From: a virus
Lineage: Duplodnaviria > Heunggongvirae > Uroviricota > Caudoviricetes
IMG/VR virus record: IMGVR_UViG_2713897054_000020
DNA length: 9,715 nucleotides
Direction: 5' to 3' (one strand)
Position numbers and translations under genes: made by a program. A model generated the notes under the pieces. That model had not been told where the DNA came from, did not search any database, and was given only the letters and a program-made list of their open reading frames with translations. Shown one piece after another: positions 318 to 6,858 of this stretch. Position 1 is the first letter of the stretch; every line of letters starts with the position of its first letter.

Positions 318-520
318 GGTCCTTCCTGGAATTATGGCCCGTTACGGGGCGGCGACCTCGCGGTTTTTATCTGTTTATGAAAATTTTCCGGCAAAAGTCA
401 GATCCGTTCTTCTTCTCTGTAACAGACTGTTTAAAAATGAAAATATTAAAAAAAGAAAGGATCTGACACGAGGCATTTTAGCCAGAAAATGTCATTATCA
501 GATCCTTTCTCATTTTTGTT
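318..520 (+). other. lambda-type cohesive-end site (cos-1): cosN core plus cosB-like R-site array
   Basis: 339-363 CCGTTACGGGGCGGCGACCTCGCGG matches the lambda cosN region as I recall it (12-nt cohesive end GGGCGGCGACCT = 347-358), followed by TTTATGAAAATTTTCCGG as in lambda. Downstream are three copies of an 8-mer, TCAGATCC at 398-405, inverted GGATCTGA at 459-466 and TCAGATCC at 498-505, with an A-rich tract between them (about 430-455), mirroring the lambda R3-I1-R2-R1 layout. Confidence 0.75.
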
Positions 521-1187: not shown

Positions 1188-1254
1188 AAGCTCATAAATA
1201 GCGAAAAACCGCGAGGTCGCCGCCCCGTAACGGTCCATATGCCGGAAAGGACCC
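1188..1254 (-). other. second cos-like site (cos-2), inverted relative to cos-1, upstream of the rpp-like gene
   Basis: 1209-1233 CCGCGAGGTCGCCGCCCCGTAACGG is the exact reverse complement of the cos-1 cosN 25-mer. About 65 bp is shared with cos-1 at roughly 85 percent identity, including the flank TTTTTCGCTATTTATGA on the minus strand, which matches lambda. Read on the minus strand the order is cosN, a cosB-like region, then the terminase-homologue gene, i.e. the lambda arrangement. Confidence 0.65.
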
Positions 1255-1256
1255 GT

Positions 1257-1279
1257 AAAAAAAGCCGGATTTCTCCGGC
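1257..1279 (-). terminator. rho-independent terminator after the capsid operon
   Basis: Stem GCCGGA (1264-1269) pairs with TCCGGC (1274-1279) around a 4-nt loop. An A7 run at 1257-1263 gives a U7 tail on the minus-strand transcript. Lies directly after the stop of the 137-aa gene (1285). Confidence 0.6.
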
Positions 1280-1284
1280 CTGTC

Positions 1285-1698
1285 TCAGATGGTTTTCAGT
1301 ATGCGATCGATGTCGCCGTCATCGCCCGGGTTTCTGCCATCGTATGCCATGCCAGCTGATACGGCTTGCGGGCTGTGCATGTCCATAAAGTTTTCAAAGG
1401 CTGCGGTAAGCTCCGGCGCAACCCTCGGACGTTCCTGCTCTATGGTCATGCTAAGGATGCTTTTAGCCGTACCAACATCGATACAAGGCACGTTTGCCAT
1501 TGCACGTAACAGCGGCTGATAGTCGCCAGATTCATCAAGCGCCATAATCGCATCAGCGCGCGGCTTGTCCTGCTCTTCCAGTTTGTTAAGTTGATATATG
1601 GCCTCGTAGGTTGATAACCCTCTGTCAGCCATTGCCCGCGCTTCGGCTTTAAATTTACTCGCCAGCGGTAGCGTCATGATGCTTTCATTCGTTGCCAT
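1285..1698 (-). CDS. hypothetical protein (137 aa), last gene of the capsid operon; possibly an assembly or scaffold-type factor
   Basis: Minus-strand ORF, ATG at 1698-1696, 12-nt gap after the gpD-like gene with a G-rich SD. Acidic, Ala-rich, predicted helical. No motif recognised; the scaffold suggestion rests on position only. Confidence 0.55.
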   Translation of the reverse strand: MATNESIMTLPLASKFKAEARAMADRGLSTYEAIYQLNKLEEQDKPRADAIMALDESGDYQPLLRAMANVPCIDVGTAKSILSMTIEQERPRVAPELTAAFENFMDMHSPQAVSAGMAYDGRNPGDDGDIDRILKTI

Positions 1699-1710
1699 CG
1701 TTCCCCCTGC

Positions 1711-2046
1711 TTATCGGGCCAGCGGCTGAACGGATACGCCAGAACCCGCAAAGGCGGCGCATTTTTTCGCATCGGTGTCGACGCTCTCAGGCCAGTTAAC
1801 GGCGGCAATATTGAATATCCCCGTCTTGTAACACTGTGCTGATTTCTGCTTTGACGTGTCCACAGGATACGAAGTCAGATAAACAGCCTTGCCAGATTCC
1901 TGACCATCCCACGGCTTAAACTCGCCATTGTCCGCCAGCATCAGCGGGGTAAATTCCTGAATAACGCCAGCATCAGCGGCAAAATGTACCAGCGTCGTGG
2001 CGACCTGCTGACTGCCTGCGAATAACTCAATGTATGGAGTGTCCAT
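1711..2046 (-). CDS. head decoration protein, lambda gpD homologue
   Basis: 111 aa, about the size of gpD (110 aa). Blocks TPLMLADNGEFKPWDG and WPESVDTDAKKCAAFAGSGVSV align with gpD TPLMLDTSSRKLVAWDG and [30 protein letters not shown] upstream of ATG 2046-2044. Confidence 0.85.
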   Translation of the reverse strand: MDTPYIELFAGSQQVATTLVHFAADAGVIQEFTPLMLADNGEFKPWDGQESGKAVYLTSYPVDTSKQKSAQCYKTGIFNIAAVNWPESVDTDAKKCAAFAGSGVSVQPLAR

Positions 2047-2057
2047 AGAATCCCCCG

Positions 2058-3113
2058 TTAACCAATTTTGACGGTAACAAATTTGCGAATATCTGCCGGT
2101 ACCGGCTGCGGTGCGCTGTGTGTCTGCACGTACTCAATCGCCGGATCGCCGTCCTCAATCCAGTTTTTCGGGTAGTACATGTTTTGCGTTGCGCCCGTTC
2201 TGACCGCTTCCTGATCCATAATCGCACCATAGGCCACCAGGCCTTTATTGTTGGTGTTACCCAGGACCAGTAAATCAGGCTCAAGGAAATATTTTTCGGT
2301 GCCGTCGCTGTCAGCGTATTTGCCGGAATAGACGATAAGGGCAATATCGCCCAGATAGCCTTTAAAGCTCACCACTTCGCCCAGGTTTTTACAGGCCAGT
2401 TCTGCGGCGGATTCTGAACCACGGGAAAGATCGTACAGCTCACGGAATTTTTTAAAGCTGCGTAACGTGCGCCATACCTCAGCGCCCATAATCATGACGT
2501 TTGCGGGGCAACCAGCCTGATCAGCATAAAGCTCGATGTCATAGATTGGGTCGTGCATCTCTTTATCCTGCTCGGACCATTTTTTACCCTTGGCCTGCTC
2601 TATGATGCAGTTTTCCGGTATTTTCCAGTCTATTTCATAGCGTTCTATGCCTTCGCCCTCAATAATGTTTTTTCCGGTCGTTATCGCATTCACCGCTAGC
2701 CATTCCACGCGCGCTTTAATGGCGTTTACCTGGCGGCGCATGTTGCCAGTAATCAGGCGCATACGTCGGTAGGTAGGGTCGTTAAGCTGTGCCGGATCTT
2801 CTCCAGCCATGCGCATGATGGTTTTTGTTGGATCGATTTCGTGCTTTGGCTTCATGTAGCCAGGTTTAATCGTGCTGGTTTCGTATCCTTTATCGCGCTG
2901 TACCTGGCTGCCAACCATAGGCGAACAAAACGCCGACATGGTGACTTCTTCAATGTCCAGGGTATCCAGCATGATGTTTTGGGTGCTGAATGTCGCCACG
3001 TTCGGGAAAAACAGCGTGGTAAACAGCGGACTGAATTTAAATTCCGCAATATCCCCGCGATTCAGGTACGCAAAAAGCTGGTTAGTGTTAAGTGCCGTTG
3101 CTTTGCCTGCCAT
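2058..3113 (-). CDS. major capsid protein, lambda gpE family
   Basis: 351 aa versus gpE 341 aa. Conserved blocks run across the whole length: EFKFSPLF, PGYMKPKHEIDP, EDPAQLNDPTYRRMR, KGYLGDIALIVYSGKY, LVLGNTNNKGLVAYGAIMD and YPKNWIEDGDPA, against gpE KFKFDPLF, PGYVKPKHEVNP, EDPQNLADPAYRRRR, KGMYGDVAIVVYSGQY, MVLGNTQARGLRTYGCIQD and YPKNWVTTGDPA. The start overlaps the upstream stop (TAATG). Confidence 0.9.
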   Translation of the reverse strand: MAGKATALNTNQLFAYLNRGDIAEFKFSPLFTTLFFPNVATFSTQNIMLDTLDIEEVTMSAFCSPMVGSQVQRDKGYETSTIKPGYMKPKHEIDPTKTIMRMAGEDPAQLNDPTYRRMRLITGNMRRQVNAIKARVEWLAVNAITTGKNIIEGEGIERYEIDWKIPENCIIEQAKGKKWSEQDKEMHDPIYDIELYADQAGCPANVMIMGAEVWRTLRSFKKFRELYDLSRGSESAAELACKNLGEVVSFKGYLGDIALIVYSGKYADSDGTEKYFLEPDLLVLGNTNNKGLVAYGAIMDQEAVRTGATQNMYYPKNWIEDGDPAIEYVQTHSAPQPVPADIRKFVTVKIG

Positions 3114-3319
3114 TATTCACCCCCATAATTTTTATGCATCCCAAGCGCCGCAAGTAAATAAGAGCGCACAAGTGAACCTATCGACGGCTCCGGCGTCATC
3201 AGCGGATCCAGTCCAGCCGCTACGCCAGCCTCATAGTTTTTTTTGTGGCGCTGCTTGAGCACCTCCACGATTTCGGGGCTTATGTACACCGAAACACCGC
3301 CTTTTTTCTCTTCTGCCAT
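3113..3319 (-). CDS. hypothetical protein (68 aa), first gene of the capsid operon
   Basis: Minus-strand ORF with SD AAGAGGAA upstream of ATG 3319-3317. Its stop overlaps the start of the gpE-like gene by one nucleotide, which implies translational coupling. No motif recognised. Confidence 0.5.
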   Translation of the reverse strand: MAEEKKGGVSVYISPEIVEVLKQRHKKNYEAGVAAGLDPLMTPEPSIGSLVRSYLLAALGMHKNYGGE

Positions 3320-3352
3320 AGTCAGAAATTCCTCTTTGACTTAAAAAATCAC

Positions 3353-3403
3353 AACTGGATGTTCATCCAGTTATGATTATAATCATGATTGCATTTTGCG
3401 CAA
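3353..3403 (-). promoter_or_regulatory. putative promoter and operator of the capsid operon
   Basis: Minus-strand -35 TTGCGC (3403-3398), 16-nt spacer, -10 TATAAT (3381-3376). The -10 lies inside a perfect 14-bp palindrome ATGATTATAATCAT (3373-3386). A perfect 20-bp palindrome AACTGGATG-TT-CATCCAGTT (3353-3372) covers the predicted start site and early leader. Confidence 0.4.
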
Positions 3404-3480
3404 TAAAATTGAGTTATGTTGCAAATTATGAAATGATTTACAGCAACAGTAGTCACCATGCTGTTAACCTCGTAAGCAAA

Positions 3481-3524: not shown

Positions 3525-3548
3525 ACAAAAAGCCGGATTTTCTCCGGC
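3525..3548 (-). terminator. rho-independent terminator after ssb
   Basis: Stem GCCGGA (3532-3537) pairs with TCCGGC (3543-3548), with an A-run at 3527-3531 giving a U-tail on the minus strand. Almost identical in sequence to the terminator at 1257-1279. Lies directly after the SSB stop (3557). Confidence 0.6.
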
Positions 3549-3556
3549 CTGTGCGT

Positions 3557-4233: not shown

Positions 4234-4420
4234 TTTTGCGCCTCACTTTTTAAAGAGTCTCGCTTCGTCTCACTTGATATTTTTGATGTTTTTATGTGCA
4301 TGTTTCATAAGGATTTTTTTACTCCTCACTTTTTGGGGTATATATACGTTGAAAAGTGAGGAGTTCAGGGGGTTTTTCGTTCAATTACTCATTGTCCTCA
4401 CTTTTGCGCCTCACTTTTTA
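4229..4420. repeat. putative replication origin: iteron array with an AT-rich inverted-repeat core
   Basis: Two perfect 24-bp direct repeats CTCACTTTTGCGCCTCACTTTTTA at 4229-4252 and 4397-4420. The sub-motif CTCACTT(TT) occurs at least six times on the plus strand and once inverted. A 12-bp inverted repeat CTCCTCACTTTT (4322-4333) / AAAAGTGAGGAG (4351-4362) flanks the AT-rich spacer TGGGGTATATATACGTTG. Sits immediately 3' of the replication helicase gene. Confidence 0.6.
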
Positions 4421-6363: not shown

Positions 6364-6858
6364 TTAATCCCCGTCCGTCGCTTTTCTTAAAATAACCTCT
6401 GTCACGAAATCAGCATAGTTAGCGGCAATATCAAGAATATTTAGCCCTGTATCTCTGTGCTCATCAGTGCAAAGAAAGAAAAAAGCCACCCGCATAATTT
6501 CAGATATTGACGAAAGCGCATCAGCCGCATCATCAGGAACGCCGGAAAATTCCTGTTTCAGGGAATTAAAACGATCATCACGCATAACCCCCCCATTTTC
6601 ACAATCAGCAATCAGGATAGCTTTGGCCTCATTCAGAGCCATATCAGCACTAAGTTGCATAACCGCCAGCGAATGAGGAACGAAAGCCCCTGCATATTCT
6701 GTTTCACTGGTGGCGTGCTTATGCGCCATGTCAGCAATAACAGAAATATCAATCAGCGCGTGCATCAGCGTAGTGAGCGCGGCGGCTGCTGCGTCCGGTG
6801 TGGTTTTATTGTGCATAGGTTTCTCCCTGGCGAATACGGGCGGCAAATACAGCAACAC
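6364..6858 (-). CDS. hypothetical protein (164 aa as drawn; about 150 aa if translation starts at ATG 6816)
   Basis: First gene of the leftward operon. The internal ATG at 6816-6814 has a better SD (AGGGAG, 6-nt spacing) than the first ATG at 6858. Acidic, Ala-rich. No motif recognised. Confidence 0.55.
   Translation of the reverse strand: MLLYLPPVFAREKPMHNKTTPDAAAAALTTLMHALIDISVIADMAHKHATSETEYAGAFVPHSLAVMQLSADMALNEAKAILIADCENGGVMRDDRFNSLKQEFSGVPDDAADALSSISEIMRVAFFFLCTDEHRDTGLNILDIAANYADFVTEVILRKATDGD

Follow-up and report, generated by a model that had tools for sequence, protein, structure and literature searches.

Capsid genes have been reported as the commonest phage late gene in Gram-negative phage-inducible chromosomal islands (PICIs), and one is present in 21 of 29 reference islands of this group (PMC10111431). 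In the prototype island EcCICFT073 of Escherichia coli, Fillol-Salom et al. (2018) described c1499 as a putative capsid protein and c1500 as a head decoration protein (PMC6092414), and a review explicitly mentions this capsid homologue (PMC6893505). Helper induction, replication and high-frequency transfer are experimentally established only in EcCICFT073 and its relatives (PMC6092414), and in EcCICFT073 both interference and the redirection of packaging are functions of rppA (c1503) (PMC6739421). We analyzed a stretch of 9,715 nucleotides from the IMG/VR virus record IMGVR_UViG_2713897054_000020 (the window, on whose full length all positions are given unless another record is named), and in particular a cassette of 2,035 bp at 3319-1285 on the minus strand. 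To judge from its sequence, this region is almost certainly the conserved head-gene cassette of classical EcCICFT073-type E. coli PICIs. A preliminary description of the same DNA had left open that the arrangement might be uncatalogued. It corresponds, however, to c1498-c1501 of EcCICFT073; it is already catalogued and genetically tested, and what was observed is a feature already published for this well-studied family of satellites. The new content is modest and consists of the assignment of the last gene to the Nu3 scaffold type, a selection analysis and the definition of a conserved control region.

The head-gene cassette and its proteins

All long open reading frames (ORFs) of the window are located on the minus strand without exception. 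The cassette contains four close-set ORFs encoding proteins of 68, 351, 111 and 137 amino acids (aa), of which the first two overlap by 1 nucleotide (nt), while the following genes are separated by spacers of 11 nt (351-aa/111-aa) and 12 nt (111-aa/137-aa). The four-gene operon at 1285-3319 of the preliminary description was thus recovered from the ORFs at the same coordinates. Genes c1498, c1499, c1500 and c1501 of EcCICFT073 have the same order and the same lengths, and their products are 68%, 96%, 99% and 98% identical, respectively, to those encoded here. The nucleotide match amounts to 92.9% over 2.4 kb, runs from just after ssb and includes the upstream control region, which excludes a wrong alignment to EcCICFT073. 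Homology to CFT073 begins at about position 3553. The cassette is a single operon that lies between two copies of one terminator hairpin and has its own conserved promoter-like region upstream. The hairpin copies (3527-3552 and 1258-1283) belong to a direct-repeat family, D1, with 81% gapless identity. It was also observed that this hairpin, AGGCCGGAGAAA(A)TCCGGCTTTTT, which is near-identical after ssb and after the 137-aa gene, brackets the capsid cassette and its control region in the manner of cassette boundaries.

The memberships of the 351-aa and 111-aa proteins in the gpE and gpD families of phage lambda, as proposed in the preliminary description, can be regarded as confirmed well beyond chance on the strength of profile searches. 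The 351-aa protein matched the whole Pfam model Phage_cap_E (PF03864, profile positions 14-328 of 329) with an E-value of 4.6e-51 and 174 bits, which is above the gathering cutoff of 22.9, and it is 43% identical to lambda gpE across 328 aa. Its match to PDB entry 3BQW, a ‘putative capsid protein of prophage’ of 351 aa (E 1.5e-231), means that a crystal structure of a near-identical coat protein exists; lambda capsid structures (7VI9 and others) were matched with E 3e-81. Likewise, the 111-aa protein scored above the gathering cutoff of the Pfam model HDPD (PF02924; E 1.3e-17, 64.5 bits, cutoff 29.1). It shares 36% identity with lambda gpD, and its best PDB match is the phage 21 decoration protein SHP (1TD0/1TD3, E 1.5e-13). 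NCBIfam returned no match for any cassette protein.

The preliminary description had also stated that the element encodes no scaffold, and that the two small flanking ORFs are candidates for partner factors. The first statement is incorrect: by its sequence, the 137-aa ‘partner factor’ is homologous to the C-terminal portion of Nu3/gpC, the scaffold of phage-21-type lambdoid phages, and a scaffold function can be predicted for it. The second statement is therefore half right. The 137-aa protein had no match in Pfam, and the Nu3 link was obtained by tblastn against phage genomes and by profile comparison. Against phrog_53, which comprises lambda-type head proteases, the match lies at the C-terminal end (positions 494-567 of 583, E 1.6e-8). 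When 50,697 phage records were searched by tblastn, 20 matches were listed, 19 of which fall in the Nu3/scaffold part of the phage-21-type protease-scaffold gene (36-39% identity across residues 49-131, best E 3e-5); the remaining match, to the gpC homologue of Gifsy-1, was not significant (E 0.3). Pairwise blastp against the phage 21 scaffolding protein gave E 4e-11, and the profile-profile comparison of the 137-aa family with the Nu3 family by hhalign gave a probability of 95.8% (E 7e-9, 97 columns). The alignment contains the two ‘IMxL...A’ repeats of Nu3 and a conserved C-terminal tail, F-E-x-F-M-x-x-H-S-P, that reads FENFMDMHSPQAV in the 137-aa protein and FEHFMANHSPAAV in phage 21 (FENFMDMHSP versus FEHFMANHSP). 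What the 137-aa protein lacks are the first ~65 residues that precede the aligned region in the phage 21 scaffold, and the protease domain. Word-indexed and exhaustive protein searches returned almost exclusively close relatives from E. coli, to which the exhaustive search added one distant relative of 134 aa and one Nu3-like protein of 195 aa. The AlphaFold2 (AF2) model is all helical, of low confidence (pLDDT 44) and too poor for a fold search. Nu3 is reportedly largely disordered, which would fit this low-confidence model, although the model proves nothing. No paper linking Nu3 to PICIs was found in the searchable literature. It should be noted here that some RefSeq orthologues of the 137-aa protein (e.g. 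L004 1501-1914) are named ‘phage head-tail connector protein’ and others ‘hypothetical protein’. We considered and rejected a head-tail connector; the RefSeq name is misleading and probably echoes the old ‘head-tail preconnector’ label of lambda C/Nu3.

The closest phage coat proteins among the 50,697 phage records, namely those of Gifsy-1, PhiR12-type phages, phage 21 and lambda, are only 44-46% identical to the island coat, which argues against recent copying of helper genes. The coat, decoration and scaffold-like proteins thus represent an old PICI-specific lineage of the lambda/phage-21-type head module that was kept as a set. The island shares with this module the coat, the decoration protein, the homology to the scaffold tail and an identical cosN. 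The differences are, however, considerable. Identities are 36-46%, and the order E-D-Nu3-like is the exact reverse of the order C/Nu3-D-E in both lambda and phage 21, in agreement with the earlier remark that E and D are inverted relative to lambda. Furthermore, the island scaffold is a free-standing protein of 137 aa without protease domain or nested-gene arrangement, and the island has no portal, protease, W, FI or FII. The prophage at icd in CFT073 has a phage-21-type head module and a cosN identical to that of the island; its E and D proteins are each 44% identical to the island proteins, and the tail of its C/Nu3 protease-scaffold is 37% identical. Judged from position alone, this prophage is probably the helper.

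The 68-aa protein matched phrog_3255, a PHROG of unknown function (E 8.5e-46), and had no match in Pfam. Its family is restricted to E. coli and Salmonella and comprises two alleles that are ~68% identical to each other. An assignment as gpW was discarded, as the length is the same as that of lambda gpW but there is no similarity. In the AF2 model (pLDDT 71), two helices come after an extended segment. The sequence pattern resembles that of a ribbon-helix-helix protein; this fold is an unproven candidate, and searches with Foldseek and PDB profiles gave no significant match, the top one being the DNA-binding domain of TraM (E 0.9). The control region upstream of this ORF consists of a −35-like TTGCGC (3403-3398), a 16-nt spacer holding the dyad ATTGCx-N5-TGCAAT, and a perfect −10 sequence TATAAT (3381-3376), which is overlapped by a hairpin at 3378-3347 with a 14-bp stem and a T-run (free energy −19.8 kcal/mol, z −5.9). 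A strong ribosome-binding site follows between the hairpin and the ORF. The series of dyad, TATAAT, hairpin and ribosome-binding site was present in all 82 related loci, among which some stem positions vary on both sides with pairing kept. Based on these features, the region could be a promoter with an operator, an attenuator or an antitermination target.

Conservation, selection and island context

Of 5,426 complete E. coli genomes, 594 contain the cassette at a coverage of at least 80%, almost always with 90-99% identity. A scan of genome contigs with the coat protein gave no match. The gene counts are based on up to 82 related loci, and 80 IMG/VR contigs, most of them island-sized, were examined for context. 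There the cassette belongs to islands of mosaic make-up, which have at least three types of integrase and either RepA-helicase or primase replicons; a Nu1-type gene is present in 37 loci and rppA in 19. The intactness of each gene and its ratio of nonsynonymous to synonymous substitutions (dN/dS) are listed in Table 1. With dS values of 0.2-0.4 among the compared copies, the dN/dS values of 0.10-0.28 indicate clear purifying selection on all four genes, comparable to that on the island terS and ssb genes, and the scaffold-like gene is the least constrained of the four. This gene is internally deleted in L008, L045, L053 and L057, where the last ~18-27 codons are left, and frameshifted in L019 and L049. 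All six islands have intact coat and decoration genes and a Nu1-type terS.

The window matches the chromosome of E. coli O91 strain RM7190 with 100% identity, and there the element is flanked by yejO on one side and by tRNA-Pro/yejM on the other. A 16-bp direct repeat, AAACGTATAACTAAAA, occurs once on each side (L001 7343-7358 and 17789-17804) and is a candidate att core that would delimit an island of ~10.4 kb; the right-hand copy is located between int and tRNA-Pro, outside the tRNA. The window encodes a tyrosine integrase of 413 aa, a regulator with weak AlpA/HTH_17 matches (E 0.003-0.006) that RefSeq labels as a helix-turn-helix (HTH) regulator, a DUF4222 protein, SSB and a RepA-type helicase with an AAA_25 domain (E 2.8e-43). 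Three 18-nt iterons (TTTTGCGCCTCACTTTTT) occur at 4234-4419 with a spacing of 83-85 bp; the stretch they span, between the start of an 89-aa ORF and the replication gene's stop codon, is probably the origin of replication. The 180-aa small terminase is 34% identical to lambda Nu1 across 178 aa, including the C-terminal region that binds gpA in lambda. The terS gene is flanked by a 59-nt inverted repeat (333-391/1181-1239, 86% complementary) with an exact cosN, GGGCGGCGACCT, in each arm. The inverted cosN pair matches what has been described in EcCICFT073 as cos1/cos2. As a separate observation, the 164-aa ORF at 6364-6858 on the minus strand is equivalent to two separate 73-aa ORFs of EcCICFT073 placed one after the other (identity 55% for residues 15-90 and 78% for residues 92-164), which suggests either a fusion here or a split in EcCICFT073.

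Searches with Pfam and PHROGs identified no portal, protease or large terminase gene among the ORFs of the window, and none was found in the RM7190 flanks (yejO; tRNA-Pro/yejM). The same holds, in window and flanks, for lysis, tail and head-tail connector or adaptor genes, and no ORF matched the P4-like satellite markers Sid, Psu, Delta or the alpha primase-helicase in Pfam or PHROGs. The gene content is accordingly not that of a capsid-forming PICI (cf-PICI), as terL, portal, protease and the head-tail adaptor or connector are all absent. Instead, the terminal integrase, the specific site, a size in the 10-12 kb range, the alpA-type regulator, the replicon with iterons, cos and terS are those of a classical Gram-negative PICI, and the element is best described, from its sequence, as a ~10.4-kb E. 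coli PICI beside tRNA-Pro. The earlier diagnosis of a helper-dependent satellite rather than a prophage remnant is borne out by int, the AlpA-like HTH regulator, the RepA-type replication gene, the iterons, SSB, Nu1 and the two cosN sites, and the same is true for the stated absence of portal, protease and large terminase. As a whole, the preliminary observation is partly confirmed, being real except for the scaffold clause.

EcCICFT073 and the present element also have the downstream cos and a 93-aa ORF in common. Beyond this, the two islands differ: the integrases are 25% identical, the integration site is tRNA-Pro/yejM here and ycfD-phoQ in EcCICFT073, the replicon is of the RepA-type helicase instead of the primase type, perC is absent here, and a full-length Nu1-type terS is found in place of rppA. 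Indeed, terS fills the slot that is occupied by the shorter RppA in EcCICFT073 (L003 11160-11594), and the two proteins have no detectable similarity. With the Nu1 type in 37 related loci and rppA in 19, it appears that cassettes for two different packaging strategies can be swapped beside one and the same capsid module.

Table 1. Features of the cassette and the neighboring packaging region, with intact gene copies and dN/dS values among related loci.
Feature	Position	Strand	Evidence or remark	Intact copies	dN/dS
Second cosN, inverted, 3' of the Nu1-like gene	347..358	+	Exact lambda match		
Full-length Nu1-type small terminase (terS), 180 aa	538..1080	-	Phage_Nu1, E 4.9e-23; phrog_57, E 1.1e-52	37/37	0.17
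cosN GGGCGGCGACCT, co-oriented with the genes, 5' of the Nu1-like gene	1214..1225	-	Exact lambda match		
Intrinsic-terminator-like G+C-rich hairpin with T-run, closing the operon directly before cos	1262..1281	-	Free energy -15.9, z -3.2		
Truncated Nu3-type scaffold homologue, 137 aa, c1501 orthologue	1285..1698	-	phrog_53 C-terminus, tblastn, hhalign	71/73 full-length copies, plus four loci with internal deletion	0.28
Head decoration protein, 111 aa, gpD/SHP family, c1500 orthologue	1711..2046	-	PF02924	79/79	0.10
Major capsid protein (coat), 351 aa, lambda gpE family, c1499 orthologue	2058..3113	-	PF03864	82/82	0.13
68-aa ORF, c1498 orthologue, first gene of the operon	3113..3319	-	phrog_3255	80/82	0.24
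Conserved promoter-like control region, 5' of the 68-aa ORF	3347..3404	-	Sequence, hairpin search, 82 loci		
Terminator-like hairpin just past ssb	3527..3552	-	Upstream edge of the block common to EcCICFT073		
ssb (comparison)				43/45	0.17

Possible roles of the cassette

The explanation that we favor combines the identity of the cassette with a shell-subunit mechanism, and taken as a whole we consider it about evenly balanced between right and wrong. Its mechanistic part, according to which the cassette would add island-made shell subunits to procapsids nucleated by the helper and thereby confer a conditional advantage, is tentative. As genes for portal, protease, large terminase, head completion and tail are all missing from the island, we infer that a shell made from island proteins would have to be nucleated on a helper portal/protease core. 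On such cores, island subunits would add to or replace the helper coat. The shell would then be filled by the gpA-type large terminase of the helper, steered to the island cos by the Nu1-like small terminase, and the particle would be finished by helper connectors and tails. Packaging could thereby become less dependent on the amount or the compatibility of the helper coat. Such an advantage would hold under certain conditions only, and would thus have escaped notice when lambda, phi80 and the CFT073 prophage were used in the laboratory crosses.

Several observations weigh against this shell-subunit mechanism. Deletion of c1499 or c1500 left both the transfer by the resident prophage and the interference with lambda unchanged, and lambda, phi80 and the CFT073 prophage could all transfer an island with cat in place of c1499, at up to ~1e6/ml (PMC6092414). 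With lambda, the DNA that became packaged was of phage size throughout, small capsids being reported there as tested for lambda only (PMC6092414). When the genes beyond ori were expressed singly, rppA alone inhibited lambda (PMC6739421). In addition, co-assembly with the helper coat is uncertain at 44% identity, and the incorporation of the island coat into virions is hypothetical. Lastly, the scaffold-like gene has been lost or carries a frameshift in 6 of ~77 loci, so that at least this component is not always needed.

A redirection of capsid size with helpers other than lambda is unlikely on the present evidence. In this scenario the coat would act like Ccm of SaPIbov5, or the short Nu3-like protein would act like CpmB of SaPI1, its scaffold-type C-terminal tail and the helper scaffold/protease competing for the coat, so that a smaller shell for one 10.4-kb genome would result. 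Both precedents have features in common with the island. SaPIbov5 is a cos-packaged satellite in which Ccm, a diverged homologue of the helper's major capsid protein, alters capsid size (PMC6893505), and CpmB is a short satellite protein that resembles the 80alpha scaffold in a shared C-terminal motif and in its mode of binding the coat (PMC5644958), just as the 137-aa protein keeps the phage-21-type Nu3/gpC tail and lacks ~65 N-terminal residues. The restriction of the small-capsid test of EcCICFT073 to lambda also leaves room for this scenario. However, Ccm is needed for small capsids and blocks the helper, whereas the 96%-identical orthologue of the island coat did neither with lambda, and Ccm comes without decoration and scaffold genes of its own. 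CpmB has no sequence relationship to the 137-aa protein, and size redirection is demonstrated for CpmB and putative here. The tetA-marked island from which lambda packaged phage-sized DNA had an intact cassette; we rejected the notion that the c1501::tetA marker broke the scaffold-like gene, as the primers place the insertion just past the c1501 stop codon. Moreover, deletion of c1499 or c1500 did not relieve interference, and reviews give full-size capsids for EcCICFT073 (PMC6893505). For lambda, the small-capsid redirection that was suggested in the preliminary description is thus unsupported, as orthologues with 96-99% identity were associated with phage-sized DNA and with knockouts that had no effect. 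The interpretation given in that description is partly supported, the satellite diagnosis being right.

We regard it as decidedly unlikely that the three head proteins are jointly dominant-negative and poison the head assembly of competing non-helper lambdoid phages. PICIs often carry anti-phage functions, including interference at assembly steps, for which the inhibition of tail assembly provides an analogue (PMC11364771). A divergence to ~44% identity in three proteins could make mixed assemblies defective, and purifying selection without a transfer phenotype would fit a role in protecting the host. Yet rppA was the only gene beyond ori in EcCICFT073 that cut lambda plaquing when each was expressed alone, and its deletion restored lambda titres nearly to the island-free level (PMC6739421). 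That the cassette is a neutral remnant, left either by an ancestor that once formed capsids or by a prophage head module that was captured, as the published knockouts without phenotype and the incomplete set without portal or protease might suggest, is very unlikely, because all 82 copies of the coat gene and all 79 of the decoration gene are intact with dN/dS values of 0.10-0.13 at dS up to 0.4 (dS values of 0.2-0.4 arguing against an artefact of very recent spread), and because cassette and control region are retained in islands in which other modules were exchanged and the cassette is intact in 594 complete E. coli genomes.

Related satellites and implications

Among the described satellites, the cf-PICIs of the EcCIEDL933 type likewise combine an E. 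coli PICI backbone with an island-encoded capsid protein. They encode, however, HNH, terS, terL, portal, protease, coat and head-tail connectors and build their own small capsids, whereas the present island has no terL, portal, protease or connectors. A more far-reaching idea, to which we assign a low probability, is that coat, decoration protein and truncated scaffold together form a shell-building kit. With natural helpers of the phage 21 type, such a kit might make island-specific and possibly smaller shells on stolen portals, the Nu3-like protein out-competing the helper scaffold/protease via the shared C-terminal tail. If true, capsid piracy would exist in a third, hybrid grade, intermediate between classical PICIs, which steal everything, and cf-PICIs, which steal only tails.

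The puzzle behind the cassette is that its genes are under clear purifying selection, and capsid genes are common in these islands, and yet the knockouts had no phenotype. The presence of a scaffold homologue beside the coat and decoration genes implies that a system of three components may have been missed when genes were deleted or expressed one at a time. The head proteins are an old island-specific lineage and not copies of helper genes. Together with the scaffold finding, this points to the whole cassette and to its natural helpers as the place where its function may be sought.

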